Source: an uncultured Parachlamydiaceae bacterium
Lineage (GTDB): Bacteria; Chlamydiota; Chlamydiia; Chlamydiales; Parachlamydiaceae
Assembly (NCBI GenBank): GCA_963752155.1
Contig: CAVVXH010000010.1
Coordinates: forward strand, 32,001-96,000
Direction of reading: 5' to 3'
Length of the DNA stretch: 64,000 nt
Below, one piece after another: positions 1-37,299 of this stretch. The notes beneath the pieces were generated by a model, which was not told the origin of the DNA, ran no database searches, and was given only the letters and a program-made list of their open reading frames with translations. A program made the position numbers and the translations under genes. Within the stretch, counting starts at the first letter, position 1; the number at the start of each line of letters is the position of its first letter.

Positions 1-1156
1 TTTCAGTCATCCGTTTAGCGGCTCGGCCTGTCGGGGCAGCCAGGACAATTTTTGTGGAGAGCTGCTCGGTGATGGCCATGATAGCATTGGTGATTGTACT
101 TTTGCCTGTACCTGGACCCCCTGTAATAATTTGTACTTTTGCTTCTAAGGATTGTGCTACGGCATCTTTTTGGTGTGTTGCAAGCTCAATTTGGAGTTTT
201 TTTTCGACCCAATCGAGAGCTTTAGGAATGTTCACTTGACGTAAGGCACAAACGCCTTCCTTAAGGCGTTTAAGTTCTCTGGCGATGCCTATTTCAGCTG
301 CAAAAAGAAGTTTGTTCCATAGAAAGGGCATGACCTCACCGGCATGGACTAAGTCCATGATTTCAATGCGGCTTTCCTGTTCCAAACTTTTGATACAAGC
401 AGTGATATTTTCCTGAGAAGTTTCCAAAACTCCTTCAGCTATTTTAAGGAATTCTTGTTGAGGGAAACAGACATGCCCGTCGCCGGCAAGTTCTGACAAT
501 ACATGTTCAATACCGGCTTCAATGCGTAGAGGGGATTCTTTGGCAATGCCCATTTTCTGAGCAATCGTATCAGCTGTTTTGAATCCGATTCCACGGATAT
601 CCCGTGCAAGACGGTAAGGGTTGCTTTGTACTTTTTCAATACTTTTGTCGCCATAGATTTTATAAATTTTTTGGGCATAGGCGGGACTGACACCATTTGA
701 CTGAAGAAATATCATGACGTCGCGAATCGATTTTTGTTCTGTCCAGCAGAAGCAAATCTGCTCGAGTTTTTTCTTTCCGAGTCCAGGTATTTCTAAAAGT
801 TTATGGGGAGCTTTTTCGATGATTTCGAGAGTATCTACTCCAAATTTATCGACAATACGGCTGGCAAATTTAGTACCGATGCCTTTAATGAGTCCGGAGC
901 CCAAATATTTTTTAATGCCTTCAACATTGGCAGGAACTTCGCTTTTATAGCTTGAGACTTCAAATTGCATCCCATGCACTAGATGCCGTTTCCAGTTGCC
1001 TTGGCAGCGTAACGTTTCCCCTGGGGATATAGAAGGCATAATGCCGACAATGCAGGAAAGTTCTTGTTTATTGCTTTCTTTTAATTGGGCGATGGTGAAG
1101 CCGTTTTCAGGATTTTGAAATGTGATCCTTTCAACATAACCGATAATTTCTTGCAT
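1..1156 (-). CDS. recD2: RecD2-like ATP-dependent helicase (runs off left edge of window)
   Basis: Manual translation from ATG at 1156 gives MQEIIGYVERITFQNPENGFTIAQLKE; the same frame later has GIGFKTAD, ITGGPGTGKST (Walker A) and APTGRAAKRM. Not in ORF track because no stop lies in the window. Confidence 0.92.
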   Translation of the reverse strand, partial: MQEIIGYVERITFQNPENGFTIAQLKESNKQELSCIVGIMPSISPGETLRCQGNWKRHLVHGMQFEVSSYKSEVPANVEGIKKYLGSGLIKGIGTKFASRIVDKFGVDTLEIIEKAPHKLLEIPGLGKKKLEQICFCWTEQKSIRDVMIFLQSNGVSPAYAQKIYKIYGDKSIEKVQSNPYRLARDIRGIGFKTADTIAQKMGIAKESPLRIEAGIEHVLSELAGDGHVCFPQQEFLKIAEGVLETSQENITACIKSLEQESRIEIMDLVHAGEVMPFLWNKLLFAAEIGIARELKRLKEGVCALRQVNIPKALDWVEKKLQIELATHQKDAVAQSLEAKVQIITGGPGTGKSTITNAIMAITEQLSTKIVLAAPTGRAAKRMTE

Positions 1157-16872: not shown

Positions 16873-18426
16873 ATGAAAAGTTTTTGCATCGCAGGACCTA
16901 TAAGTGAATCAAGGAATTATTTTGTACCTAAACGGCTTGATTGGCTTCAGTTAGAGACTTTAATTGATCAAATGCACTATTTTATTTTGCATGCACCTCG
17001 TCAAAGTGGAAAAACTTCTGCTATTTTAGAATTTGCCAAGCATTTGAATCAGCAAGCTAAATGCACTGCGTTATACATAACTACAGAGCCTGCTCATCCA
17101 GCAAAAAATGACATTGAACGAGCTTTTTTCTGGCTCTTGTCGCAATGTGAATCTCAGATTGCCATCCAGCTTCCGGATCAAAAGGAAATTCGCGACTTTT
17201 TACAACCCATTCTTAAAGAGCGCCCAATCTCTGAAGATGCTTTTTTTCGCTTTTTAACCTATTGGGCAGAATTTACTAAAAGGCCATTGATCTTTTTTTT
17301 TGATGAAATCGATGGACTTATTGAAAATACTCTCGTCTCATTACTCAAACAATTGCGTACGGGTTATACAAATCGGCCTGACCATTTTCCTCAGTCAATC
17401 TGTCTCATCGGTGTTCGCAATTTACAAGATTATAAACTTACCTCGATGGAAGAGGAAGAAAAAGGAATTTTACTCAGTCCTTTTAATATCGTAGCTGACT
17501 CTTTGTTTTTGCGAAATTTCTCTTTAGAACAAGTGTGGGATCTCTATGGTCAACATACCCAAGAAACGGGCCAATGTTTTACCCCCGAGGCCATTGAGTA
17601 CGTTTATTATCTTACGCAAGGACAACCCTGGCTTACCAATGCTCTAGCCTATCAAGTTTGTTTTAGAAATGAAATAGATCGCTCGAAGACTATTACTAAA
17701 GATAACATTGAAGTTGCAAAGGATCAACTTATTTTGAGAAACGACACACACATAAGTTCTCTCACTGAAAGACTCAATGAACCTCGAGTATGTAATATCA
17801 TTGATGCTATTATCAGTGGCTTAAGCGGTGCAGTTTCTCTAAATCCCGATGATATCCAGTACGTCCGGGATCTAGGTTTAGTCAAAACTGACAGTTGGGA
17901 AATTGCTAATCCTATTTACCAACAAATCATTCCACGAGCACTTACGCAAGTCTTGCAAGGGTTGATCAAAGTGGATTGTAGTTGGTATGTCGATAATTCC
18001 GGAAAACTTAATGTAATTAAATTACTTGAGAGTTTTACTGATTTTTTCAGAGAAAATGCTGAAGGATATCGAGCAAAAACTCCCTATTTAGAATCCTATC
18101 CACATCTTTTACTTATGTCCTATCTTCAACGTGTGGTCAATGGGGGAGGCATGATTCATCGAGAATATGGTGTAGGAAGAAAACGAGTTGATCTTTTAAT
18201 TGAATGGAAAAAAAGAGAGCGTTATATCATTGAAATAAAAATAAAATATGGTGAAGACACACTAAAAAAAGGCCTTAAGCAATCGGTTGAATATCTTGAT
18301 CTTTGCAAAGCTACAGAAGCACATCTTCTTATTGTGGATAGAAACTCTAAAAAAAGTTGGGAAGAGAGAATATCGAACGAGGAAGTAATTTTCGGTGGAA
18401 AAAAGATTCACGTATGGACCTTGTAA
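16873..18426 (+). CDS. AAA-like ATPase with C-terminal PD-(D/E)XK nuclease-like domain
   Basis: HAPRQSGKT, FFDEID; C-terminal REY...RVDL...IEIK. Confidence 0.85.
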   Translation: MKSFCIAGPISESRNYFVPKRLDWLQLETLIDQMHYFILHAPRQSGKTSAILEFAKHLNQQAKCTALYITTEPAHPAKNDIERAFFWLLSQCESQIAIQLPDQKEIRDFLQPILKERPISEDAFFRFLTYWAEFTKRPLIFFFDEIDGLIENTLVSLLKQLRTGYTNRPDHFPQSICLIGVRNLQDYKLTSMEEEEKGILLSPFNIVADSLFLRNFSLEQVWDLYGQHTQETGQCFTPEAIEYVYYLTQGQPWLTNALAYQVCFRNEIDRSKTITKDNIEVAKDQLILRNDTHISSLTERLNEPRVCNIIDAIISGLSGAVSLNPDDIQYVRDLGLVKTDSWEIANPIYQQIIPRALTQVLQGLIKVDCSWYVDNSGKLNVIKLLESFTDFFRENAEGYRAKTPYLESYPHLLLMSYLQRVVNGGGMIHREYGVGRKRVDLLIEWKKRERYIIEIKIKYGEDTLKKGLKQSVEYLDLCKATEAHLLIVDRNSKKSWEERISNEEVIFGGKKIHVWTL

Positions 18427-18532
18427 GTAGTACAATCATTTTCAATAAATTAACCAGAATTCCTTGACTTGTAATCTTTGTTAATCTAGAATTAACGTGT
18501 CTATAATTCTTATAAATGAAGGAGCAAAATCA

Positions 18533-20143
18533 ATGGAACCTGTAGAAAATTCTCAAATCTATTCTCAAATTCAAAATTTTTACTCATCCTCCAGTGAAAA
18601 ATTGAATAAAAAATTTAAAAATGAATTAAATGAATTGCATAAAACTGTTTTTTCTATTTATGAAGAGATCATTCGCATTAAAAAGCCCATCCTAGCATCT
18701 TCTAGCATGCTGCTTGATATACGTTCAAGATTATATACTATAAGAAAACATTTTTCTAAACTTCCTCATGTTTTAAATAAAATTAATGATTTGATCATAT
18801 ATATCAATAAAAATGAGCCTAGTTTTAGAGAAATGACTTTGATGATGCCCAAAGAATTTATACGAAATATTATCAAAATTGTATTAGATTTGGATTACGA
18901 TGAATTAGATAACTATAAAGTTGCAACCTTGGATGAATTTAAACTTGCTGATCTGATAAGTGATGGGCAAGCTAATATAAACAATTATTTAGATGATAGA
19001 AAAAGAGATGAATTTTTGCCACGAGATCAACAAAAATTTCAAATTCGAGTGGATAGATTGAACAAAATGTTTGGTTTTCATGGTTATCAAGATTGGCCTG
19101 ATGAAATTTTTCATGAATGTTTTAATTCAGTTAATTTCAATTTTAGATTTTTGAAGGAGCAGCTTCGTGAATCTGATTTGAATCTTGTATTGCCCCATTT
19201 AGAAAGATTAAATCGTTTCAATAATTTAATTGATATTCAAAATTTCAGTTCTATTATTACTCCATTACAGCAGCTAACATCTCTTAATTTAGGAAAATGT
19301 TATTCTCTCAATGATAGAACGATTCAGAAAATCAGTGTGTTGACAAATCTTAAATTTCTTTTTCTTGCGCATGTTCCTGGGATTACTGAGGAAAGTCTAA
19401 AATATATTCGGCCATTGACAAAATTGCAAATACTTGACTTGTCTCGATTTACTGAAGAACAACAGAAACGGCTTAACTTGCCAAGCCTGCGAGGTATCTC
19501 GGATCTTGTTCCACTCGTCAATTTGCGAATGTTAAATTTATCCAATTCTCCAATCCAGTTAAGTTTTAGACATCTTGCTCTATTGACAAATATGCAATTT
19601 CTTAATTTTGATTCTTGGCACGTTCCAAGGAGTAAAATCCTTAAAGAGAAAAATTTTAAACTTCTTGGTCAACTGACAAAGCTACATTTTCTGAATCTAA
19701 ATTATTATCCTCTTGATAACTCCGAGATCAAGTATTTAACATCGTTAACAAATTTGCGATCTCTTGCTATTTCTGGAACCCTAAATGATGAGGGTCTTAA
19801 ACATCTTTCTCCGCTGTGTCTTCAAAGCCTCAAGCTCCAAAGTTGTAGCATCACTGATGAAGGCGTTAAGGATTTTTCTATCTCAACGAGTTTGAAGAAT
19901 CTTACGAATTTAGATCTTTCGAATTGTAATGCTATAACACATAAAGCTTATGAACATCTTGCTCAGTTGGTTGCTTTAGAAGATCTTGATCTTTCTTGCA
20001 CTCAATTAACAAATCAAGGTTTTAGACATCTGATGCAGTTAACAGCATTAAAGGTGTTAAAAATTGTAGATTGTGATGGGATTGAGATAACCAATGAAAT
20101 TCAAGAATGTTTTGGAATGGTTCTTCAGATATATGGGATGTAA
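18533..20143 (+). CDS. leucine-rich repeat protein (FBXL/RI-like repeats), candidate effector
   Basis: Repeated LTNLxxLxL...ITDEGLKHL units in the C-terminal half; RBS aggag. Confidence 0.85.
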   Translation: MEPVENSQIYSQIQNFYSSSSEKLNKKFKNELNELHKTVFSIYEEIIRIKKPILASSSMLLDIRSRLYTIRKHFSKLPHVLNKINDLIIYINKNEPSFREMTLMMPKEFIRNIIKIVLDLDYDELDNYKVATLDEFKLADLISDGQANINNYLDDRKRDEFLPRDQQKFQIRVDRLNKMFGFHGYQDWPDEIFHECFNSVNFNFRFLKEQLRESDLNLVLPHLERLNRFNNLIDIQNFSSIITPLQQLTSLNLGKCYSLNDRTIQKISVLTNLKFLFLAHVPGITEESLKYIRPLTKLQILDLSRFTEEQQKRLNLPSLRGISDLVPLVNLRMLNLSNSPIQLSFRHLALLTNMQFLNFDSWHVPRSKILKEKNFKLLGQLTKLHFLNLNYYPLDNSEIKYLTSLTNLRSLAISGTLNDEGLKHLSPLCLQSLKLQSCSITDEGVKDFSISTSLKNLTNLDLSNCNAITHKAYEHLAQLVALEDLDLSCTQLTNQGFRHLMQLTALKVLKIVDCDGIEITNEIQECFGMVLQIYGM

Positions 20144-20252: not shown

Positions 20253-21317
20253 ATGATGAACCCCGGAGAAATTAATAATCAGCAAACTCAGCAAACTTAC
20301 AATCAATATTATAAATTTGCTCATCGCACAGAAGTTTTGCTTAATTTTACAGCAAAATATCCAACCATCAGTTCGCAATTTAACGATTTGAAAAAGCAAA
20401 AGATCGACTTTGAAGAATCACCATTTTTTGTTCACGCGATTTTTTCGACGATTGTTAGATATCGTAAAACAGATAATTTTAAATATTTTATTAAAAATGT
20501 TAACAAGGATAATTTCGCTCGGTGCGCAAACGGTTTAACTCTTCCCAATTTTGATGATTCTAAAAAATGCATTACTTCAAAGCCATTGCATTCTCTTCTT
20601 TTTCAGGCTATCTGTCCAAATTTTACATCCACTTGCGATGAAAGGCTTAAGCTTGAGCCAAAATTAATAAATATTTTATTGGCTCATGATGATATTGATG
20701 TCAATTCACCTGTCATTGATTATTCAGGATGGGATGATTATGGCCTATTTATAATGCATGGAGGGACTCCTTTAGATATAGTGATAGAAAAAATCCGAAA
20801 TATTCCTTTAGCGCAAGCTCTATTGCTAAACGGAGCCAGATTAAAACTGCCTCTATCAGATAGGGGGCTAATATTTTATCAATCTGTTATTAATCCTTTA
20901 TATGCACCTTCTAAATGGTTAATTTTATCTAAAATATTCCCCAAGGAAATTCTTTCGAAGATTGTATATTACCAAATCAAAAATGCTGAACAAAAAGTTC
21001 TACCTGAAGATGGTAGCTTCCAAGGTCCCCCTCCACCCTATTTTGAAGCTTTACATGAATTGAGGATCAAATACTTATTTAATCAGAGTTATAGAAAATA
21101 TGTTAATAAAACAAAGGAACTAATGAATCTGAACAAGTTTTTTCTTCTATCTGCATCGGAACCTACACTAATAAGCGAGCTACGTTTTATGCTAAAAAAA
21201 GCTGAAATTCTTGGTATTGACATCGGAGTCTTGGATGAAGAATCAAAAAATGCTTTGGACATCGCACAAAAATGTAAGAACGAAGAAGCAATCATCCTTC
21301 TTAAATCGGTGGGGTGA
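20253..21317 (+). CDS. ankyrin-like hypothetical protein, paralog 1
   Basis: GGTPLDIV..ALLLNGA and KNALDIA ankyrin-like motifs; near-duplicate of 22141-23259. Confidence 0.7.
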   Translation: MMNPGEINNQQTQQTYNQYYKFAHRTEVLLNFTAKYPTISSQFNDLKKQKIDFEESPFFVHAIFSTIVRYRKTDNFKYFIKNVNKDNFARCANGLTLPNFDDSKKCITSKPLHSLLFQAICPNFTSTCDERLKLEPKLINILLAHDDIDVNSPVIDYSGWDDYGLFIMHGGTPLDIVIEKIRNIPLAQALLLNGARLKLPLSDRGLIFYQSVINPLYAPSKWLILSKIFPKEILSKIVYYQIKNAEQKVLPEDGSFQGPPPPYFEALHELRIKYLFNQSYRKYVNKTKELMNLNKFFLLSASEPTLISELRFMLKKAEILGIDIGVLDEESKNALDIAQKCKNEEAIILLKSVG

Positions 21318-22140: not shown

Positions 22141-23259
22141 ATGATGAACATCGAAGAAAATTATGCCAGGCAAACTTGCAGTCAATATTATAAATTTGCT
22201 CGTCTCACAAACGCTTGCCTTAATTTCACAGCACAATATCCAACCATCATTTCGCAATTTAACCAATTGAAAAAGGAAAAGAACGATTTTGAAGAATCTC
22301 CATTTTTTGTTCACGCGATTTTTTCGACAATTGTTGATAATCGTAAAACAGATAGTTTTAAATATTTTATTAAAAATATTAACAAAGATACTTTCGCTCG
22401 TTGTGCAAACGGTTTAACTCTTCCAGATTTTGATGATTCTAAAAAATGCGTTACTTCAAAGCCTTTGCATTCTCTTCTTTTTCATGCTATCTGTCCACAT
22501 TTTAAAACCGTTTGCCGTAAAATGGTTAACCCTGAGCCAAAATTAATAAATATTTTATTGGCTCATGATGATATTGATGTCAATTCACCTGTCATTGATC
22601 AATCAGGATGGCATGACTATGACTTATTTATAATGGATGGAGGGACTCCTTTAGATATAGTTATAGAGAAAATCCGAAATATTCCCTTAGCGCAAGCTCT
22701 ATTGCTAAACGGAGCCAGATTAAAACTGCCTCTATCAGATAGGGGGCTAATATTTTATCAATCTGTCATTACTCCCTTATATGAACCTTCAAAATGGTTA
22801 ATTTTATCTAAGTTTGACCCCCAATGTAAATTCCAAATATTCCCCGAGGAAGTTCTTTCGAAGATTGTATATTACCAAATCAAAAATGCTGAACAAAAAG
22901 TTCTACCTGAGGATGATCACTTCCCAATTGCCCCACCACCCTATTTTGAAGCTTTACATAAGTTGAGAAGCTTTAACTTATTCAATCAGAATGAAAGAAA
23001 ATATGTTTACAAAAGAAATGAATTTATGAATCTGAACAAGTTTTTCCTTCTATCTGCATCGGAACCTACACTAATAAGAGAGCTACAGTTTATGCTAAAA
23101 AATGCTAAAATTCTTGATATTGACATCGGAGTCTTGGATGAAGAATCAAAAAATGCTTTGGATATCGCACAAAAATGTAAGAACGAAGAAGCAATCATAC
23201 TTCTAGAAAGCGCAAATCACAAACCTAAGCATTCAAATAAGCCTTGTGTGATACAATAA
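22141..23259 (+). CDS. ankyrin-like hypothetical protein, paralog 2
   Basis: Near-duplicate of 20253-21317, including ~100 bp of upstream DNA. Confidence 0.7.
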   Translation: MMNIEENYARQTCSQYYKFARLTNACLNFTAQYPTIISQFNQLKKEKNDFEESPFFVHAIFSTIVDNRKTDSFKYFIKNINKDTFARCANGLTLPDFDDSKKCVTSKPLHSLLFHAICPHFKTVCRKMVNPEPKLINILLAHDDIDVNSPVIDQSGWHDYDLFIMDGGTPLDIVIEKIRNIPLAQALLLNGARLKLPLSDRGLIFYQSVITPLYEPSKWLILSKFDPQCKFQIFPEEVLSKIVYYQIKNAEQKVLPEDDHFPIAPPPYFEALHKLRSFNLFNQNERKYVYKRNEFMNLNKFFLLSASEPTLIRELQFMLKNAKILDIDIGVLDEESKNALDIAQKCKNEEAIILLESANHKPKHSNKPCVIQ

Positions 23260-23285
23260 CTTCTTATATCTCCAAAATATTTAGA

Positions 23286-23314
23286 TTGCGTATAAATCTT
23301 TTATATGTTACAGT
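23286..23314 (+). promoter_or_regulatory. putative sigma70-type promoter of aromatic operon
   Basis: TTGCGT-17 nt-TACAGT with TG extended -10. Confidence 0.55.
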
Positions 23315-23343
23315 TAGGAAAAGAGCACAAAGGACACGTTAAG

Positions 23344-23403
23344 ATGAGCCAACAGCTGTACTTCTACTTCTATTACTTACCCACTTGGCGGGAGGCTGAC
23401 TGA
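23344..23403 (+). CDS. attenuator leader peptide 1 (MSQQLYFYFYYLPTWREAD)
   Basis: Six consecutive Tyr/Phe codons plus a Trp; aagga upstream; followed by an intrinsic terminator. Confidence 0.85.
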   Translation: MSQQLYFYFYYLPTWREAD

Positions 23404-23430
23404 TGCTGTAAAAAGCATTCGTGTCTCACA

Positions 23431-23457
23431 AATCCCGCCACAAGCGGGTTTTTTTTT
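23431..23457 (+). terminator. attenuator terminator 1
   Basis: aatcccgc-cacaa-gcgggtt plus T-run; 5' arm tcccgcca is complementary to tggcggga (23386-23393). Confidence 0.85.
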
Positions 23458-23492
23458 GCCCTAATATAATTTAATTTTTTTAAGGAATCCAA

Positions 23493-23588
23493 ATGTCTCT
23501 TATAAACTCTATCAAAACTCTCCCAAGTACAAATTGCTATTTCTATTTCTTTTTTTATTTTACTCCACCCATAGGCGGGAGCCCTTGA
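23493..23588 (+). CDS. attenuator leader peptide 2 (MSLINSIKTLPSTNCYFYFFFYFTPPIGGSP)
   Basis: Eight consecutive Phe/Tyr codons; RBS taagga; followed by an intrinsic terminator. Confidence 0.85.
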   Translation: MSLINSIKTLPSTNCYFYFFFYFTPPIGGSP

Positions 23589-23623
23589 TCCCTTATTAGC
23601 TGATGCTAAATAGGTTTGAATCA

Positions 23624-23653
23624 GGCCCCGCCAAAAGGTGGGGCTTTTTTTTT
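23624..23653 (+). terminator. attenuator terminator 2
   Basis: ggccccgcc-aaaa-ggtggggct plus T-run; 5' arm is complementary to ggcgggagcc (23574-23583) with one bulge. Confidence 0.85.
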
Positions 23654-23693
23654 GTCCAAAAATCAAAATGTGATGTTATATAAAAGGAAAAAT

Positions 23694-24485
23694 ATGGATA
23701 TTTTAAGTTCAAATCCTGCGAATTTAATGATTGCAGGACCCTGTGCTTTGGAATCTCGAGATCAGCTTCGAGAGACTGTGGCCACCCTAAAAAAATTGGG
23801 AATAAATATGATTCGAGCTTCTTTATGGAAGCCCCGAACACTACCAGGCTGGGAAGGCCTTGGATGGATGGGCCTCCCCATTCTCTTAGAAGAAACAGTT
23901 CCGCATGGTCTAATCCCTGCCACTGAAATCATCACTGCAGAACATGCATTAATGGTTGTGCATGCCATGGAACAGAATGGCGAAAATGCTAAAATCATCG
24001 TTTGGTTAGGATCTCGCAATCAAAATCATATTGAACAAAAGAAAATTTCTAAAATTTTGGCCACAGGTCCCGGAGGGATTATCCTCATGTTCAAAAATCA
24101 AATGTGGGAAGATGAGCGTCATTGGTTGGGTATCTATGAACATATCATTTCTGAAGGATTCCCTCGCGAACGGCTGATGATTTGTCACCGAGGATTTTCC
24201 CCAGGAAAAATGAATAATCCAAAAGGACTGCGGAATCTACCCGATTTCGAAATGGCGATGAGAGTCAAAGAAAAAACGGGTTTACCAATGTTGCTGGATC
24301 CTTCTCACATTGGTGGGTCAACAGAAAATGTTATGGAAATTTGTTCTGCTGCTATGGCCTATGACTTTGATGGACATCTTGTAGAAATGCATTGTAATCC
24401 AGATAAAGCAAAGACAGATGCAAAACAACAGCTTTCCCCGGCTCAATTCCAAAGTTTATTGAAATGTGTTCGAAATCCTTCTTGA
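23694..24485 (+). CDS. aroF: DAHP synthase (class I-beta type, no regulatory domain)
   Basis: IAGPCALES, WKPRT, CHRG, DPSH, EMH..P.KAKTD. Confidence 0.85.
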   Translation: MDILSSNPANLMIAGPCALESRDQLRETVATLKKLGINMIRASLWKPRTLPGWEGLGWMGLPILLEETVPHGLIPATEIITAEHALMVVHAMEQNGENAKIIVWLGSRNQNHIEQKKISKILATGPGGIILMFKNQMWEDERHWLGIYEHIISEGFPRERLMICHRGFSPGKMNNPKGLRNLPDFEMAMRVKEKTGLPMLLDPSHIGGSTENVMEICSAAMAYDFDGHLVEMHCNPDKAKTDAKQQLSPAQFQSLLKCVRNPS

Positions 24486-24493
24486 GGTGGGGC

Positions 24494-25326
24494 ATGGCAA
24501 CAATTACTTATCAAGGTGTTCTTGGAGCTTTTAGCTACATCACAGCCGTAAAGCTATTCGGAGAGGATCAAAATTATAAGGCTGCTTCTACTTTTAAGGA
24601 AGCATTTGATTATGTAAATGATGGAGAAGCGGATTATGCAGTTTTGCCCATTGAAAATAGCCTGATAGGTTCAATTTTCGAGAATTATGACCTTTTGAAT
24701 GCTTATGAGATGCTTATTATTGGAGAGCATTATATGCGCATTGAACATTGCCTTTTGGTATTGCCTTGCTTATCCGTTCTTAAGGACGTCAAAAAAGTAC
24801 TCTCGCATCCTAAAGCTCTGCAACAATGTACTGACTTTTTCCGCAATCATCCATGGATAGAGGCTGTCGTTCACATTGATACTGCAGCTGCTGCCAAAGA
24901 AGTGGCCGATCGAAAAGATCCGGCTTATGCAGCCATTGCAAGTGCTTTTGCAGGAGAATTCTATGGTTTAAAGATGATTGAGAGGGGCATTGAAGATGAT
25001 ATACAAAATTATACTCGTTTTATTATTCTAGCGAAAAAAGAAATGATCCTAGAAACGGCAGTTGAAGACGATAAATGTTCCTTAGTGATGCGTTTGAGAC
25101 ATCAACCTGGAACTCTTGCGAATGCTCTCGAATTATTTGGAAAATATGGATTTAATTTGACCAAGATCGAATCGCGACCTATTCGAGGAATCCTTTTGAG
25201 TATTTATTTTATGTGGACTTTAGTTTTGAACCTAGAGATGGGCATGTTATTCAGGCCTTAGAAAATCTAAAAGATGAAACAGAGTCTTTAAAGATTTTAG
25301 GATTTTATAAAAAAGGGACGTTATGA
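24494..25326 (+). CDS. pheA: prephenate dehydratase (frameshift near 25190)
   Basis: YQGVLGAFS, PIENS, SHPKALQQC, NYTRF, LTKIESRP; shifted frame continues NPFEYLFYVDF...ILGFY to TGA 25326. Confidence 0.9.
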
Positions 25327-26381
25327 AAATGTTGCAAAAACTTCGAGATCGAATTGATTGGCTTGATGAACATATCGCTTTTTTGATGGATGCGAGAATG
25401 AAAACGGTCGATCAAGTCGGTCGATTAAAAAGTACTCTACATCAAGATGTCACAGACTTATCCCGAGAAGACAATGTTTTACAGCATGTGCAAGATGCCG
25501 TTCAACATCCTATTCTTAAAACTAACATTGTCAACATCTACAAAGAGATTATGTTGGAAGCGAGAGTGGCACAACAGTTTTTTAGACATACTTCTCAGCC
25601 CTTTCGAAGAATTGGTATTATTGGGCTTGGAATGATGGGTGCATCTATCTCTAAAGCACTTAAAACAAAGGATCCATTAATTGAGTTGTGTACGATCATG
25701 CATCCTGGCAATGATACTTCACAGGCTTATGCGGGGGGGTGGATAGATCGTATGTTCTCCACATTAGCTGAACTTATTGAAAATATAGATCTTATCATTT
25801 TGGCATCTCCAATTTCGACGATTATTGCTTATGCCAATGAAATAGCACAGCATGCCTCACAAAACAAAAAACTCATCGTTCTGGATATCGCAAGCGTCAA
25901 GCTAGACATTGTTAAAGCTTTTGAGGCTCTGACCAGTGAACAGATAGAGTATGTGGGATCTCATCCTATGGCCGGAAATGAAACCAGTGGTTTTGCAGGG
26001 AGTCAACCCACTCTATTTGTTAATAGGCCTTGGGTCATCGTTCCTCATTCCAAAAATACTGCAGAAACACTCGGTTCCATCGAAGAGTTAATTCAATTTT
26101 TTGGTGCAAAACTTACTTCTTTAGATGCTGAAATTCATGATCAAAGAGTTTCACTCATTTCACATCTGCCTGCATTTATTTCAAAATCATATTTAGATTT
26201 TGTAAATTCTACGGATCCTCAGAGCTCACTTATTGCAGGGCCAGGTTTCGAATCATTTACTCGACTTGCTAGCCAAAACGAGCAGATGCAAGTTGAAATA
26301 GAAAAATATAACAAGAACTTTATTCAAGCTTATTTAAAGCAATGGCTAGCAGTTCTGGAAAATAGAGAGGAACATTCATGA
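25323..26381 (+). CDS. tyrA: chorismate mutase-prephenate dehydrogenase fusion
   Basis: N-terminal LRDRIDWLD..L..R (CM type II); GLGMMG, DIASVK, HPMAG, HD...ISHLP. Confidence 0.9.
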   Translation: MKMLQKLRDRIDWLDEHIAFLMDARMKTVDQVGRLKSTLHQDVTDLSREDNVLQHVQDAVQHPILKTNIVNIYKEIMLEARVAQQFFRHTSQPFRRIGIIGLGMMGASISKALKTKDPLIELCTIMHPGNDTSQAYAGGWIDRMFSTLAELIENIDLIILASPISTIIAYANEIAQHASQNKKLIVLDIASVKLDIVKAFEALTSEQIEYVGSHPMAGNETSGFAGSQPTLFVNRPWVIVPHSKNTAETLGSIEELIQFFGAKLTSLDAEIHDQRVSLISHLPAFISKSYLDFVNSTDPQSSLIAGPGFESFTRLASQNEQMQVEIEKYNKNFIQAYLKQWLAVLENREEHS

Positions 26382-27544
26382 AACAATTATCTGCTTCAGC
26401 AACTGTTGCAATCAATGATTTAGCTCTAGAAAAAAAGAGCAAAGGAGAGAGGGTCTATAATTTCGCAGCTGGGGATCCAGTCCTTGTTAATCACCCTTCC
26501 ATTGGTGCAAGGGGCTGTTAAGCAAATTGAGAAGGGATTATCTCCGTACCCTCCTGTAGAGGGGCTTCCTCAATTGCGTGCATTGGCTGTAGATTGGGTG
26601 AACACCACATGCCATACGAGTTTTCACAAAGAGAATGTATTGGTCACATGTGGGGGCAAATTTGCTCTGTTTGCGATATTAGAATCCCTCCTCGAGCAAA
26701 ATCAAACGGTTTTAATCATTGCTCCTTATTGGGTTTCCTATCCTTCACTTGTTAAGATGGCTGGAGGAATCCCTAAAGTGATTTCAACTCATGCTGCAAA
26801 AAAGTGGAAAATCACACCGCAAGACCTTATAGAGCATCATTCGGTAGAGACTAAAGCGTTGATTTTTAATAGTGCTTGCAATCCAACTGGAACGGTCTAC
26901 ACGAAAGAAGAGGTTGCGGCCATTTTACGTACAGCAAGTGAATTGGGTCTGATGGTTATATCTGACGAGGTCTACAGTGGTCTTGTGTTTGAAGAGGAAT
27001 TTGTTTCTTGCGGTTCATTTCCTGAATATCGTGAGAACGTTATGATAGTCCAAAGTTGCTCAAAGAATTTTGCTATGGCGGGATGGAGAGTCGGATTTGC
27101 TTTTGGGCCTGAATCGATCATTGAACTTTTGGCCCGAGTTCAAAGTCAAACAACTACAAGTACTCCTTTGGCGAGTCAGTGGGCTGCAATAAGTGCTTTG
27201 GAGAACGCAGGGGTTGTGAATTCATATGTTAAACAGGCAATGAGAGCAAGAAGAGACATTTTTGTCTCCACTTATAACTCTCTTTTTTCTACTCCTATTG
27301 AAACGCCAAAGTCGGCTCTTTATGCCTTTTTATCCATGAGTTCACTTGGATTACCGCAAGAGGTCTCCTCCGGTTCATTTTGTAAGGAACTTATTTCAAA
27401 AGATAATTTAGCTGTTGCCCTGGAACTGCTTTTGGAGATGAAGAGTATGTGCGCTTTGCCTATTCAGAAACTGAAGACGAAATTCAAGAAGGATTACATG
27501 TGTTGCAATCTGCAATTGAACCAATTAGGAGAGAAAAATCATGA
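26378..27544 (+). CDS. class I/II PLP aminotransferase (frameshifts near 26500 and 27415)
   Basis: MKQLSASATVAIND..FAAGDP start; NPTG, SDEVY, SKNFAMAGWRVG; shifted C-terminus PGTAFGDEEYVRFAY. Confidence 0.88.
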
Positions 27545-28840
27545 GTCACTATCTTGTTAAAAAATCAACTACAAAGCGGGGAAATTGTCGTCCCTCCTTC
27601 AAAGTCTCATACTTTACGTGCCATTCTTTTTGGCGCATTAGGTCACGGAGAAACAAAAGTTCGCAATTACCTTGACTCGACATACTCAGCAATGATTGAA
27701 GCCTGTAGACTCCTTGGAGCTACTTTAGATGTCACTTCTACATCCATTACAATTCAAGGGACGAATGGAAAAATTGATTTTGGGAATAAAGATGTGATCC
27801 ATGCTGGAAATTCAGGAATAGTTCTCCGGTTCTGTGCGGCCATTGGAGCCCTTTCTTCGAATCCAATTGTGATCACAGGGGATCATTCCATCCGCCATCA
27901 AAGACCTATGAAGCCACTTCTTGATGGGCTTTCACAGCTAGGTGTCACTTCTTATTCCATGCGAGGAGATGGGTATGCGCCCATTATTACTTTCGGACCT
28001 ATTCGTTCTGGAAAAGTAATTATTTCCGGAGAGGATTCTCAGCCGGTTTCTGACTCCTCGATCGCTGCCGCTTTTGCCGAAGGGCCTATTGATTTAGAAG
28101 TGCGTAATGCCGGGGAAAAACCTTGGGTGGCTCTGACACTAGATTGGTTTGATCGTTTAGGGATCGCTTATGAACATCGAAATTTTGAGTCCTATCGTCT
28201 TTTTGGAAATAATCGCTATGAAGGATTTGATTATACAGTGCCAGGAGATTTAAGTTCAGCAGCATTTCCCATTACTGCAGCGTTGATTACAGGTTCAGAG
28301 CTAATTGTCAATAATATTGACATGCAAGATTCCCAGGGAGATAAAGAGCTCATTTTGACGCTCCAAAAAATGGGAGCTAGGATTGAAATTGATGAACATC
28401 TCAAAAAGTTAGTTGTAAAAAAGGGAAAACAACTTTCAGGGATATCTGTCGACATTAATAATTATGTGGATGCCATTACAATATTGGCAGTCGTCGCTTG
28501 CTATGCTGAAGGGGAGACGAGAATTGAAAATGCTGCAGTTGCTCGACAAAAGGAATGCAATCGCATTCAGAGCATCGCAACAGAGTTGCGTAAAATGGGA
28601 GCTGACATTCAAGAAACTGAGAATGGTTTGCGTATTAGAGGATCCAAACTTAAAGGAGCAGATGTAGAATCGTATAATGATCATCGAATGGTGATGTCGT
28701 TGTGTGTTGCAGGCTTAGGTGCTGAGGGTGAAACTAAAGTGGGCCCTGTGGAGTGTGTTTCAAAAACATTCCCTACGTTTAAAAAGGATTTTACACTTCT
28801 TGGAGCTATCCTAAGAGATGACTTGGAGACCTCTTCATGA
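27541..28840 (+). CDS. aroA: EPSP synthase (frameshift near 5' end)
   Basis: PPSKS, GNSG, RPM, KECNRI, DHRM, KTFP; probable ATG at 27541 overlapping the upstream stop. Confidence 0.92.
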
Positions 28841-29367
28841 ACATTATTTTATGTGGACTCCCCATGAGTGGTAAGACGACGATTGGAAAAATGGTTGCTC
28901 AACAGCTAGATTATCATTTCATCGATACAGATCGCCTCATTGAAAAAGCTTATGTTGAGGAAAAACATCAAGCAAAATCTTGCCGTGAAATTTATCGAGA
29001 GCTAGGAGAAGTCAAATTTCGAGAATTCGAAAAACAACAAATTGCCACTTTGAAAGAATTAAATAGAACGGTTCTTGCACTAGGTGGGGGAACTTTGGAA
29101 GATGTTGAAAATGTGTTCAAATTAAAGGAAGTGGGTTTGATGATTTATTTGAAAGCTCCTATCGATGTTCTTTGGACCAGAATGAGTCTTCAAAACATTC
29201 CAGCCTATTTGGATCCAAAAGATCCTGAAAAAGCATTTTATGAATTAGCTAAAAAGCGTTTACCTTTATATGAAAATGCTGCACAGCTTGTTGTCGAGAC
29301 AACACAGTTAAGTGAGCAAGAGATCGTTAATAATATAATGAATAGGAAGTTAACAGATGGCGAGTAA
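28837..29367 (+). CDS. aroK: shikimate kinase
   Basis: GLPMSGKTT, DTD, FREFE, GGG, RLPLY. Confidence 0.93.
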   Translation: MNIILCGLPMSGKTTIGKMVAQQLDYHFIDTDRLIEKAYVEEKHQAKSCREIYRELGEVKFREFEKQQIATLKELNRTVLALGGGTLEDVENVFKLKEVGLMIYLKAPIDVLWTRMSLQNIPAYLDPKDPEKAFYELAKKRLPLYENAAQLVVETTQLSEQEIVNNIMNRKLTDGE

Positions 29368-30449
29368 TCATTTTGGAAATATTTTTAAAATTACGACATG
29401 GGGAGAGTCCCATGGAAAGGCTATAGGTGTCGTGATCGATGGGTGTCCGGCAGGACTCGAGCTTGATGTGAGCGAAATTAATTCAGCCCTAGCCTTGCGT
29501 GCACCTGGAAGAAATCCTTATACTTCCCCAAGAACTGAAACAGATCAAGCAGAAATTTTTTCCGGGGTGTTTGAAGGAAAAACAACAGGAGCGCCAATAA
29601 GTATCATTATTCCAAATAGGGATGCAGATTCAACGAAGTATGAACCGATTAAAGATCTCCTTAGGCCGGGACATGCGAATTTTACCTATTTGGAAAAATA
29701 TGGGATTTTTGATTATCGGGGAGGGGGCCGGGCATCTGCACGTGAAACTGCCAGTCGCGTTGCAGCTGGAGCTGTAGCCAAGAAGCTACTGAAATACAAT
29801 GAAATTCAGGTTATTGCCTATCATTAAACAGATTGGGGAAGTAGAAGCTATTCCTAACCGAGAAGATTTTGAACAGTTGCATGAAGCTATCTATGAAAGC
29901 CCTTTATTTTGCCCTGATGCGAATGCTACACAAAAGATGATTCATCTTATTGAAAAAGTCAAGGATGATGGGGATTCACTTGGAGGTGTCGTTGAATTTT
30001 ATGCCTTTGGAGTTCCTGTTGGGTTAGGAGATCCAGTCTATGAAAAATTGGAAGCTAATTTAGCTCAAGCTCTGATGACGTTGCCTGCTACAAAAGGATT
30101 TGAAATTGGTTCAGGTTTTAGTTCAGTAAGGATGCTTGCATCAGAACACAATGATCTTTTTAGCAATGAAAAGGATAAAATAGAGACTAAAACAAATTAT
30201 GCAGGTGGAACATTGGGAGGGATTTCCAGTGGAATGCCGATCGTTGGTAGAGTTGCTTTTAAACCGACCTCGAGCATTAAAAAGCCTCAGGCGACTTTGA
30301 CAAGATCAGGGGAACGTTCATCTTTTAAATTGCCTGAAGGTTCGCGTCATGATCCATGTGTTGCGATTCGTGCGGTGCCGGTTGTTGAGGCTATGGTTGC
30401 GCTGGTATTGGTAGATGCCATTCTCATGAATAGGAGCGTTAGGATTTAG
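29357..30449 (+). CDS. aroC: chorismate synthase (frameshift near 29820)
   Basis: GESHG, RPGHA, GGGRASARET in the first ORF; KPTSSI, RHDPC in the second. Confidence 0.93.
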
Positions 30450-32163: not shown

Positions 32164-32580
32164 TCACTCTTCCAAAAGCAAATAATAACTAATGTTTAAT
32201 GCCTTAGCCAATTTCTTGGCCACTTTTTCGCCGACACCACGCTTCCCATTTTCAATTTTGGAAATTTCGTTTTGATGAACCCCGCTTTTCTTTGCTAATT
32301 CTATCTGAGACATGTCCTCACGATATCTAGCGCCACGTAATACAATTCCGGCTTTTTTATATTTCTCAAGCCTCTCTTTTGCTAAAACTTCCCATGGGGT
32401 CGCTTCCTCCCAAAGGTCTATGTCGCTTTCGGAAATATCTAACTCTTTCAAAAAAGAATTTAATTTTACGCTTGAAGAGGACGGGATGTGATAAAGCATT
32501 TCTTTGCCATCAGGCATTCCAACCTTTACATCAATATAAGAAGGTTCTTCAGTATGGTGCGCCCTCATGTGTGCCGACAT
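32164..32580 (-). CDS. XRE-HTH antitoxin (HigA-like)
   Basis: C-terminal HTH MSQIELAKKSGVHQNEISKIENGKR; downstream of a RelE-like toxin. Confidence 0.85.
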   Translation of the reverse strand: MSAHMRAHHTEEPSYIDVKVGMPDGKEMLYHIPSSSSVKLNSFLKELDISESDIDLWEEATPWEVLAKERLEKYKKAGIVLRGARYREDMSQIELAKKSGVHQNEISKIENGKRGVGEKVAKKLAKALNISYYLLLEE

Positions 32581-32848
32581 AATAAATCTCTATTTGTTTA
32601 AGTTTATAATCAAGAACGGTCCAACAAGCGATATAAGTAGGTTTACCTTTCTTCAGATGACAATGATAAGTATTTTTGGATAATAATCCGTAGTTAGGCC
32701 AGTTAGTCCTTTCGGGACCATCTTTTTTTAATTCCAAAGCCAATAAGTCAATAACATCATTGATGGGTGGTCGGGATCCACTTTGTTTCAACTTTAGGTA
32801 CTGCTTGTCTGCTTTTTTTGAAAAGCGAACAGACCACTCTCTAACCAT
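32549..32848 (-). CDS. RelE/HigB-like toxin
   Basis: 99 aa basic protein, YHCHL..., YVGTHE; toxin-before-antitoxin order. Confidence 0.75.
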   Translation of the reverse strand: MVREWSVRFSKKADKQYLKLKQSGSRPPINDVIDLLALELKKDGPERTNWPNYGLLSKNTYHCHLKKGKPTYIACWTVLDYKLKQIEIYYVGTHEGAPY

Positions 32849-36180: not shown

Positions 36181-37299
36181 ATGAAAAAATTGACCTGTAC
36201 CATCCCTGGAAAACAAGTCTCTTATGATATAGAGATGCAAATGGATCTCTTGGATCAACCAAAATTTCTTGCTGATCGTCTAGCCAAACTTGGATCGCGT
36301 TTTGCTATTATAACAAATGCGAATATGGCAGGTTTACATGGGGAAAGATTGAAGAAATCTTTGTCCGAAGCTGGATTAGAGTGGGCTTCCTTTACCTTTC
36401 CATCTGGAGAGCAACATAAAACGCGTTTAATCAAAGAAGAACTGGAAAATCAGTTATTTGAGCAAGGTTTTGGGCGAGATAGTTGTGTTATTGCACTAGG
36501 AGGTGGAGTTGTAACGGATCTTGCTGGATTTCTTGCGGCTACGTATTGTCGTGGAGTTTCTTTGGTCATGATGCCGACTTCTCTTTTAGGGATGGTGGAT
36601 GCGAGTATCGGAGGAAAGACTGGGGTAGATGTCCCTTATGGAAAAAATTTGATAGGAGCTATTTATCAGCCGAAAAAAGTGTTGATCGATCTCTCTACTT
36701 TGCGAACTCTGCCTGTAAGAGAACTTCGCAATGGGGTTGTAGAAATGATCAAGCATGGATTGATTATAGATTCAGCTTATTTTGACTATCTTGATAGGCA
36801 TGCAAAAGAACTTTTGGAATTAAATCCTGAAGTGCTTCAAAAAGTAATTTATGAAAGCTGTCGCATTAAAAAGGAAGTGGTGGAGAGCGATGAAAGAGAA
36901 AGTGGAAAGCGTCACTTGTTGAATTTTGGTCATACCATTGGGCATGCTCTGGAGCATCTTACGCACTATTCAATTGCGCATGGTGAAGCCGTGGCTATTG
37001 GCTTGTTAGTAGAAAGCCATCTTTCAGTCCAACTGGGGTTGTTAGATCAGGTTGACTTCGACAGAACCATAGGTGTTTTAAGGAAATATGGATTGCCATT
37101 GCAATTGCCAAAGCGTTTTTCGAATAAGGAGATGCTTGATGTCATGGCTCTCGATAAAAAATCGCTTAAAGGCAATCCGAGATTTGTGATGATTAACGGT
37201 ATTGGCTCTTCAGTAGAATGTGATGGAGCTTATTGTATGCCTGTAGAGGAAAAGATTCTTTTGAATGCTTTAGATTGGATGTCCTCCTTGAATAAATAG
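36181..37299 (+). CDS. aroB: 3-dehydroquinate synthase
   Basis: ALGGGVVTD, VDASIGGKTG, LNFGHTIGHA, HGEAV. Confidence 0.96.
   Translation: MKKLTCTIPGKQVSYDIEMQMDLLDQPKFLADRLAKLGSRFAIITNANMAGLHGERLKKSLSEAGLEWASFTFPSGEQHKTRLIKEELENQLFEQGFGRDSCVIALGGGVVTDLAGFLAATYCRGVSLVMMPTSLLGMVDASIGGKTGVDVPYGKNLIGAIYQPKKVLIDLSTLRTLPVRELRNGVVEMIKHGLIIDSAYFDYLDRHAKELLELNPEVLQKVIYESCRIKKEVVESDERESGKRHLLNFGHTIGHALEHLTHYSIAHGEAVAIGLLVESHLSVQLGLLDQVDFDRTIGVLRKYGLPLQLPKRFSNKEMLDVMALDKKSLKGNPRFVMINGIGSSVECDGAYCMPVEEKILLNALDWMSSLNK

Follow-up and report, generated by a model that had tools for sequence, protein, structure and literature searches.

The window analysed in this work, a 64,000-nucleotide (nt) stretch of contig CAVVXH010000010.1 from an uncultured Parachlamydiaceae bacterium, contains an operon for aromatic amino acid biosynthesis that is preceded by two leader-peptide attenuators in tandem. 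It is likely that these two pheL-like attenuators, which sense the same signal and are arranged in series, act together as a multiplicative amplifier. According to this model, a single promoter would give rise to a leader of ~370 nt carrying two pheL-type attenuators of transcription, each of them complete, independent and mediated by the ribosome, and the regulated operon would comprise the genes for DAHP synthase, prephenate dehydratase (pheA), chorismate mutase-prephenate dehydrogenase (CM/tyrA), an aminotransferase, aroA, aroK and aroC. The mechanism as such is textbook knowledge; in the literature covered, neither its tandem form with one and the same signal nor a validated case from this phylum was found.

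Anatomy and predicted switching of the two units

All features of the leader lie on the forward strand. A putative sigma-66/70-type promoter (23286-23314) comprises a -35 box TTGCGT (23286-23291), a 17-nt spacer and an extended -10 box TGt-TACAGT (23309-23314). In an alignment it lines up with the TTGACA-17/18-TAGAAT-type promoters of nine relatives, and transcription would start near 23320-23321. A Shine-Dalgarno sequence AAGGA (23330-23334) is located 9 nt 5' of the ATG of leader peptide 1, MSQQLYFYFYYLPTWREAD, which is encoded at 23344-23403 (ATG at 23344, TGA ending at 23403) and comprises the control codons Y6-Y11 at 23359-23376. Since a further in-frame ATG at 23305 falls within the promoter, 23344 is the likely start. 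Antiterminator 1 (23385-23441) results from the pairing of GGCGGGA (23387-23393) with UCCCGCC (23433-23439) and encloses an inner hairpin (23402-23419), while the predicted protector hairpin 1 is weak (~23376-23394, -3.9 kcal/mol). In an alignment of 14 sequences, each pair of the antiterminator 1 helix was broken in at most one sequence, with 0 compensatory changes. Intrinsic terminator 1 (23434-23457), detected by a pattern scan, consists of a stem at 23434-23448 followed by nine U.

The second unit repeats this order. A Shine-Dalgarno sequence AAGGA (23482-23486) lies 6 nt 5' of the ATG of leader peptide 2, MSLINSIKTLPSTNCYFYFFFYFTPPIGGSP, encoded at 23493-23588 (ATG at 23493, TGA ending at 23588) with the control codons Y16-F23 at 23538-23561. 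Folding places antiterminator 2 at 23574-23632 (GGCGGG at 23574-23579 with CCCGCC at 23627-23632, inner hairpin at 23596-23609) and protector hairpin 2 at ~23563-23582 (-7.4 kcal/mol). Intrinsic terminator 2 (23625-23653) has a stem at 23625-23644 and likewise nine U. All elements named by the first-pass annotation, i.e. both leaders with their own ribosome-binding sites (RBSs), the GGCGGGA/CCCGCC antiterminators and the U-tailed terminators, were thus found, and its codon counts of four Tyr, two Phe and one Trp in leader 1 and five Phe and three Tyr in leader 2 were correct. The assembly contains indel errors, and homopolymer lengths in the leader region are possibly off by one base.

The occurrence of such units by chance was also considered. 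The pattern scan detected only two terminator-like sites within 22800-24200, while shuffled DNA gave 0.9 +/- 0.7. Among the 94 terminator-like sites of the 3.13-Mb assembly, a Phe/Tyr-rich short open reading frame (ORF) precedes only these two, and no convincing candidate for another leader-peptide attenuator was found among the 94. A covariance model built from 28 Chlamydiota-type units showed exactly two matches in the 64-kb window, both of which belong to its training set.

Switching was analysed by folding of the whole leader, with the ribosome modelled as a mask of unpaired bases; being an equilibrium approach, this ignores the co-transcriptional order of events. With the ribosome at Y6-Y11, terminator 1 opened (probability P of the terminator fold 0.03 or lower, except for 0.32 in one of 48 state pairs), and it closed with the ribosome at W15 or at the stop codon (P of 0.96-0.99 in 12 of 16 pairs). 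In the remaining four of these 16 past-cluster pairs, P amounted to 0.17-0.63 as a result of long-range pairing with unit 2, a segment that is transcribed only after the decision at terminator 1. Terminator 2 opened with a stall at Y16, F19, F20 or F21 (P of 0.04 or lower), was mostly closed with the ribosome at Y22 or F23 (P of 0.74-0.92) and reached a P of 1.0 at the stop codon; the control codons of leader 2 that are effective in the model are Y16-F21. Furthermore, the state of terminator 2 was independent of the position of ribosome 1. The folding of each leader that had been proposed as a check in the first-pass annotation therefore yielded mutually exclusive terminator and antiterminator states, set by the position of the ribosome.

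In the proposed mechanism, a ribosome supplied with plentiful Phe-tRNA and Tyr-tRNA would pass the aromatic codons and come to cover GGCGGGA at the 3' end of the leader ORF. As a result, the terminator would form, transcription would stop at terminator 1, and leakage would be stopped at terminator 2. With Phe or Tyr in short supply, the ribosome would stall 9-13 nt upstream of GGCGGGA, this strand would pair with the 5' arm of the terminator, and read-through would result. A polymerase that has passed unit 1 would be tested in the same way by unit 2. Each unit would act as an OR over Phe and Tyr, while the read-through probabilities of the series would multiply, leading to a lower basal leak and to a steeper and wider response. 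Translation of the leaders, termination in vivo and the multiplicative output are the parts of this scheme that we infer. Since terminator 2 leaves the RBS of the DAHP synthase gene (23684-23688) uncovered, control is taken to be transcriptional, and the term 'translational attenuator' used in the first-pass annotation has to be replaced by transcriptional attenuation controlled by translation. If true, the mechanism would imply a tight coupling of transcription and translation in host-dependent Chlamydiota.

Conservation, inputs and arrangement of the tandem units

For comparison, 130 DAHP synthase loci were gathered, of which 107 remained after the removal of one locus without its 5' part, 20 duplicates and two near-identical loci. 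During hand curation, four heuristic matches were dropped and second units with imperfect stems were added in L020 and L024. Upstream DNA of 450 nt or more was available for 89 loci, of which 28 showed two units, 44 one and 17 none, while the 18 loci with shorter upstream DNA showed one unit (8) or none (10). Some of the loci counted as having none carry the element before an upstream gene of the same operon, as L104 does before a transaldolase gene. Twelve of the 28 tandem loci are Chlamydiota-type (Parachlamydiaceae, Waddliaceae, Chlamydiales, uncultured Chlamydiae and other contigs). The other 16 lie outside this group; they include Patescibacteria and Ca. Roizmanbacteria, and the remainder consists mostly of metagenome contigs. 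In the sampling of Patescibacteria, one of 401 genomes matched at the level of the phylum (the centre genome itself) and 12 of 151 at the level of the family.

Switching in silico was observed for 72 of the 108 homologous units, compared to 0-3 of 108 in ten linker shuffles. Starting from the terminator instead, 74 loci had a GC-rich terminator at most 450 nt upstream of DAHP synthase, and an aromatic upstream open reading frame (uORF) unit was present in 72 of them. The leader ORFs start with ATG in 105 of 108 cases, the control codons vary synonymously (TTT 288, TTC 58, TAT 168, TAC 101, TGG 29), and the distance from the last control codon to the antiterminator has a median of 11 nt. The antiterminator follows the terminator arm: among 69 units whose arm is CCGC, 60 have GCGG in the linker, compared to 3 of 31 with a CTCC arm, and GGAGG is present in 26 of these 31. 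Judging from these comparisons, the element is real and conserved. Of the homologue search suggested by the first-pass annotation, the conserved F/Y-rich uORFs were confirmed, while covarying stems were found at the level of these arm classes and lost significance after correction for phylogeny. Within the tandem loci, unit 2 comprises more control codons than unit 1 in 19 of 28 cases and fewer in three, and terminator 2 is stronger than terminator 1 in 11 of 11 scored Chlamydiota-type and 12 of 16 other loci. The longer codon run and the stronger terminator would fit a sensitive and tight second checkpoint.

Regarding the signals sensed, both Phe and Tyr codons occur in 54 of the 56 tandem units, usually alternating. 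The difference in Tyr fraction between partner units showed a mean of 0.080, compared to 0.227 when codons were reshuffled between partners (n=28), and essentially all of 5000 within-locus reshuffles gave differences as large or larger. Since the codons are mixed and partners are more alike than expected by chance, each unit is best read as a test for a shortage of Phe or Tyr, which the pair would perform twice. A two-input AND gate, in which unit 1 would respond mainly to Tyr and unit 2 mainly to Phe and which would open fully only when both are short, could be deduced from the codons of the window (4Y:2F and 3Y:5F, or 2Y:4F among the unit 2 codons that open the terminator), and the family is indeed tunable to one amino acid, as can be seen from Phe-only runs in L012 and in four of the six permease leaders described below and from Tyr-only runs in both units of L020. 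However, the window split corresponds to a Fisher p of 0.59, the two Tyr-only units of L020 would represent one input twice, and a Phe-only unit paired with a Tyr-only unit was not found among the tandem loci. Nor is there a consistent direction by position: the more Tyr-rich unit is unit 1 in six, unit 2 in three and neither in three of the 12 Chlamydiota-type loci, compared to three, seven and six of the 16 others. Based on position counts and codon reshuffling, both a position-specific Tyr/Phe bias and a complementary bias of the partners were rejected. Together with the mixed codons and the similarity of the partners, this makes the AND gate unlikely. Of the logic put forward in the first-pass annotation, the amplifier, for which both units must read through, is thus retained, while a separate weighting of Tyr and Phe is not borne out. 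It has to be considered that codon content need not predict the response, since aroR of Corynebacterium glutamicum with its Phe-Tyr-Phe codons was reported to respond to Phe only (PMC11802643).

The first-pass annotation had listed one Trp codon in leader 1. With its T-GG, this single Trp codon (W15) begins the antiterminator strand, and placing a ribosome there favoured termination in the folding model, closing terminator 1. Among the 14 Chlamydiota-type units that are first or single, this position holds W in 5 and R or another residue in 9. Since W15 belongs to the antiterminator strand and is not conserved, Trp was rejected as a third input in the window. Across the homologues (the Trp of L002 being left out of the counts), 26 of 52 single units have Trp within their control cluster, compared to only 3 of 56 tandem units. 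Because this contrast is absent from independent pairs (7 pairs, p 1), it is phylogenetic.

With respect to the history of the tandem state, a quick DAHP synthase tree of 103 rows (without L029, L053, L056, L125, L129 and L130, left out due to frameshifts, stops or short matches) showed 15 changes between tandem and single state among 26 tandem and 44 single rows, of which at least seven are forced by well-supported branches. This alternation could be explained by a neutral or transient duplication, in which only one unit regulates, its partner being redundant, leaky or in decay. The same explanation would cover the many units that fail the in-silico switch, as well as L042 (3411-3455) and L017 (2886-2935), in which one leader ORF is followed by two back-to-back terminator hairpins. 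Such an arrangement would be expected if recombination between near-identical terminators deleted unit 2, and these loci look like collapsed tandems. On the other hand, start, frame, control codons, antiterminator and terminator are kept in both units of 28 loci, although their DAHP synthases are only 42-78% identical to that of the window. In addition, a unit and its nearest neighbour have the same position in 21 of 24 cases among the Chlamydiota-type units and in 24 of 32 among the others, although the unit tree is weak (1 of 27 branches supported; p-AU of 0.36 for within-genome pairs and 0.62 for a unit-2 clade, neither rejected). Since the units keep position-specific sequence, the data point to an old, maintained pair that would have existed before the spread of the Chlamydiota-type group, and a neutral duplication is regarded as quite improbable. 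A 'domino' antitermination in the double-hairpin loci was unsupported in L042, while L017 folds into a third, nested structure.

Whether the units act in series or in parallel depends on the promoters, which were scored on a scale with a maximum of 13 and regarded as strong from 10. Among the 28 tandem loci, 20 have a strong promoter before unit 1 and 0 have one before unit 2, which argues for units acting in series under one promoter. In the stretch from terminator 2 to the ATG of DAHP synthase at 23694, where an independent promoter would have spoken against the first-pass annotation, the best score was 5. That unit 2, or the operon after terminator 2, has a promoter of its own, so that the units would be real but parallel, is very improbable: a perfect TATAAT is located at 23465-23470, with 22 nt between it and the start codon of leader 2, but it lacks a -35 box and an extended -10, scores as given above are against it, and the gap between terminator 1 and ATG 2 comprises only 10-62 nt in 24 of 28 loci. 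Folding, conservation over 28 loci, promoter placement and class-level covariation thus agree with the earlier description of pheL/trpL-type attenuators in series. In nine Patescibacteria-type loci (L023, L027, L046, L049, L052, L054, L062, L126, L130), the first leader ATG follows ~9-10 nt after the TATAAT, which would correspond to a nearly leaderless translation of the first leader peptide.

Besides this isolated TATAAT, several observations weigh against a tandem amplifier. The promoter of the window is a weak consensus match (8 of 13), which was missed by a strict consensus scan. The naked RNA of the window folds as antiterminator, with a P(terminator) of 0.00 in both units, which can be explained by the weak protector hairpins. 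In attenuators of the pheL/trpL type, the untranslated leader terminates by default; most relatives agree with this in equilibrium folding, with termination of the naked RNA (P>0.5) in 32 of the 55 homologous tandem units and in 30 of the 43 single ones, while the window units differ. The equilibrium switch test failed for 36 of 108 units; unit 2 of L040, L041, L044 and L029, all close relatives, is among them. After correction for relatedness, the covariation is not significant (six independent pairs, ~4 agreeing and 0.1 opposite, median p of 0.125), and the nearly invariant core helix of the Chlamydiota represents conservation rather than covariation. Furthermore, 44 loci manage with one unit, and the idea that tandem units compensate for leakier switches was rejected, since protector, terminator and antiterminator energies and the U-tail were alike in tandem and single units (p of 0.06-0.82). 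That doubling is of benefit is something we only infer. Finally, the operon of the window shows at least four frameshifts and probably a fifth at the start of aroA near 27541-27554. Since rpoB of the same assembly is likewise broken into several frames, these frameshifts are likely assembly indels.

Relation to known attenuators

Both units contain the parts of a classical attenuator, namely a leader ORF with RBS, codons for the end products, a terminator and an exclusive antiterminator, and the control codons fit the end products, since the operon holds prephenate dehydratase and prephenate dehydrogenase. Their Rfam scores stay under the gathering thresholds. The best Rfam match of unit 2, RF01859 (Phe_leader), reached 24.2 bits, below the gathering score of 55, and unit 1 scored 23.7 bits with RF00513 (Trp_leader; gathering score 41) and lacks tandem Trp control codons. 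Among the homologues, one of six loci scanned (L085) passed RF01859 with 56.4 compared to 55 bits, while 20 Chlamydiota-type and related loci gave 0 matches at the gathering score.

In pheL-pheA of Escherichia coli, a leader ORF with a run of Phe codons and a 2:3 antiterminator competing with a U-tailed terminator precede a gene of Phe biosynthesis (PMC3082878). The window shares the leader ORF, the competing structures and the aromatic biosynthesis genes downstream; unlike pheL-pheA, it comprises mixed Phe/Tyr codons, two units in series and a whole operon for the shikimate pathway and the Phe and Tyr branches. The experimentally established attenuator aroR-aroF of C. glutamicum, a single unit with three control codons before a DAHP synthase operon, shows the same combination of Phe and Tyr codons and downstream gene (Neshat et al. 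2014, as summarised in PMC11802643). Compared to it, the window has two units with 6-8 codons. The uORFC-13-1 motif before aroF of Acholeplasma, with a Phe-codon uORF and an intrinsic terminator upstream of DAHP synthase, differs from the tandem of the window in being single, only predicted and from a different phylum (PMC8632094).

Two uORF attenuators in one leader are described for mgtCBR of Salmonella, where mgtM and mgtP respond to ATP and proline, respectively, act additively and work without intrinsic terminators; this case is called singular there, a single attenuator being the norm for biosynthetic genes (PMC3641672). The pair in the window differs from it by its shared Phe/Tyr input and its intrinsic terminators. 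The proposed logic corresponds to that of tandem thiamine pyrophosphate (TPP) riboswitches, independent switches for the same signal that each have a terminator and together give a steeper response (PMC9481103). In the folding model, the pair of the window resembles such pseudo-cooperative riboswitches in combining independent switches for the same input on one transcript, while its sensor would be a translating ribosome in place of an aptamer. The terms 'attenuat' and 'uORF' have 0 occurrences each in the main text of that article. The two leader peptides of ermB belong to antibiotic-induced translational attenuation (PMC8274638), and the available portions of PMC4974804 and PMC2659441 contain nothing on tandem amino-acid attenuators. 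Altogether, no description of a same-signal tandem amino-acid attenuator was found in a literature search outside of which most subscription journals lay; older comparative surveys may mention such elements.

For Chlamydiota, the only leader-peptide attenuator found to have been proposed in the literature covered is a putative trpL of Chlamydia trachomatis, which was described as unvalidated, as performing poorly in silico and as atypical in having 59 amino acids (aa) and Trp codons that are not consecutive (PMC7755916). Compared to it, elements of the window type are canonical and conserved. A validated leader-peptide attenuator was not found for this phylum within the same search, which left most subscription journals outside. 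With somewhat less assurance than for the amplifier itself, we lean towards the broader view that the tandem represents an undescribed series amplifier that replaces allosteric feedback and repressors in a DAHP synthase operon devoid of a regulator, that it belongs to a portable element (double before biosynthetic, single before permease genes) repeatedly gained and lost in environmental Chlamydiota and Patescibacteria, and that it would be the first well-supported classical attenuator of the Chlamydiota. Ribosome-coupled attenuation would thereby be extended to Patescibacteria and to Chlamydiota, where C. trachomatis was reported without validated TrpL attenuation (PMC7755916), and some environmental chlamydiae would synthesise Phe and Tyr themselves and control this synthesis. 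The tandem loci would also offer a natural test of how stacked attenuators change leak and steepness, with the single-unit relatives as built-in controls, and the compact 330-nt element could serve as a ready Phe/Tyr biosensor part.

Downstream operon and related elements

The first gene behind the leader (23694-24485, forward strand as for the whole operon; Shine-Dalgarno sequence AAGGA at 23684-23688) encodes a class I-beta DAHP synthase of 263 aa that comprises the catalytic barrel only (PRK08673, PF00793). It matches NCBIfam PRK08673 with 142 bits, under the curated cut-off, and KDO8P synthase models reach at most 46 bits. Since only positions 95-327 of the 338 profile positions are matched, the enzyme appears to lack the N-terminal regulatory domain. 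In this class of DAHP synthases, the N-terminal part carries allosteric control, and the double attenuator might compensate for its absence. The following genes were assigned by profile search: prephenate dehydratase for the Phe branch (24464-25323, one frameshift near 25189-25210, probably an assembly error), chorismate mutase-prephenate dehydrogenase for the Tyr branch (25323-26381), a class I aminotransferase (26378-27541, two frameshifts at ~26502-26512 and 27407-27419), EPSP synthase and shikimate kinase (aroA and aroK, 27554-29367) and chorismate synthase (aroC, 29357-30449, in two frames split at ~29799-29827). Among these names, aroA alone passes the curated cut-off, the others being best matches below their cut-offs. 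Due to the high indel load of the assembly, split genes in the window should not be taken as pseudogenes without read evidence.

Outside the operon, aroB follows at a distance of 5.7 kb (36181-37299). The assembly, which is 80% complete, yielded no trpA. Two further PF00793 matches in the genome look, by their N-terminal motifs, like class I-alpha DAHP synthase and KDO8P synthase. DAHP synthases of the window type are patchily distributed: 12 of 400 genomes of the phylum matched, and two genomes of the same genus gave no match to the query. This pattern suggests lateral gain or frequent loss. G007, a genome of the same family, shares its locus with a Parachlamydiaceae record (L002 = L015), in line with a host from Chlamydiota. 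As a separate case, L018 comes from an Oligoflexia bin; its DAHP synthase, 68% identical, is Chlamydiota-type and is preceded by one Tyr-rich attenuator. This could reflect lateral transfer or mis-binning.

The covariance model also detected single copies in other Chlamydiota before genes for Trp/Tyr permeases (PF03222, assigned by Pfam in L132, L134, L136 and L138, and by N-terminal likeness in L144 and L148). These matches lie at about 1501-1620 of each locus, directly upstream of the gene, and their runs are mostly Phe-only or Phe-dominated, which suggests a Phe-controlled import of aromatic amino acids. Five of the six genomes showed no close match to the DAHP synthase of the window. A single attenuator was further found before a short ORF region and a class I/II aminotransferase in L131 (1501-1614; PF00155) and L141 (1501-1616, minus strand). 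Environmental chlamydiae would accordingly possess a family of aromatic attenuators that is doubled, so far, only before the biosynthetic operon.

In other loci, a transaldolase gene lies directly behind an aromatic attenuator (L104, 3002-3103) and a transketolase gene behind DAHP synthase (L024), so that precursor-supply genes appear to be tied to aromatic operons there, and L079 carries a second, divergent attenuator (102-212, minus strand). In Patescibacteria-type loci (L025, L053/L056 (twice), L085, L093, L130 and L076), the attenuator terminator is followed by a hairpin-like element of 100-140 nt. This second conserved element, with a long closing stem and internal GAGCCG...CGAATAG...AAGGC words, is absent from the window and showed no Rfam match at the gathering score in the six loci scanned (L076 and L056 lay outside the scan).

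In the vicinity of the operon, two highly similar paralogous ORFs without Pfam match are located just 5' of the promoter (20253-21317, 354 aa, and 22141-23259, 372 aa). By eye, an LRR-like ORF (18497-20143) and three AAA-ATPase-like ORFs (at 16873, 32942 and 34527) were recognised nearby. Just 3' of the operon, an HTH-bearing pair of ORFs (99 and 138 aa) on the minus strand (32164-32848) resembles, again by eye, a RelE/HigB-HigA toxin-antitoxin module, which would be in line with an island-like neighbourhood.

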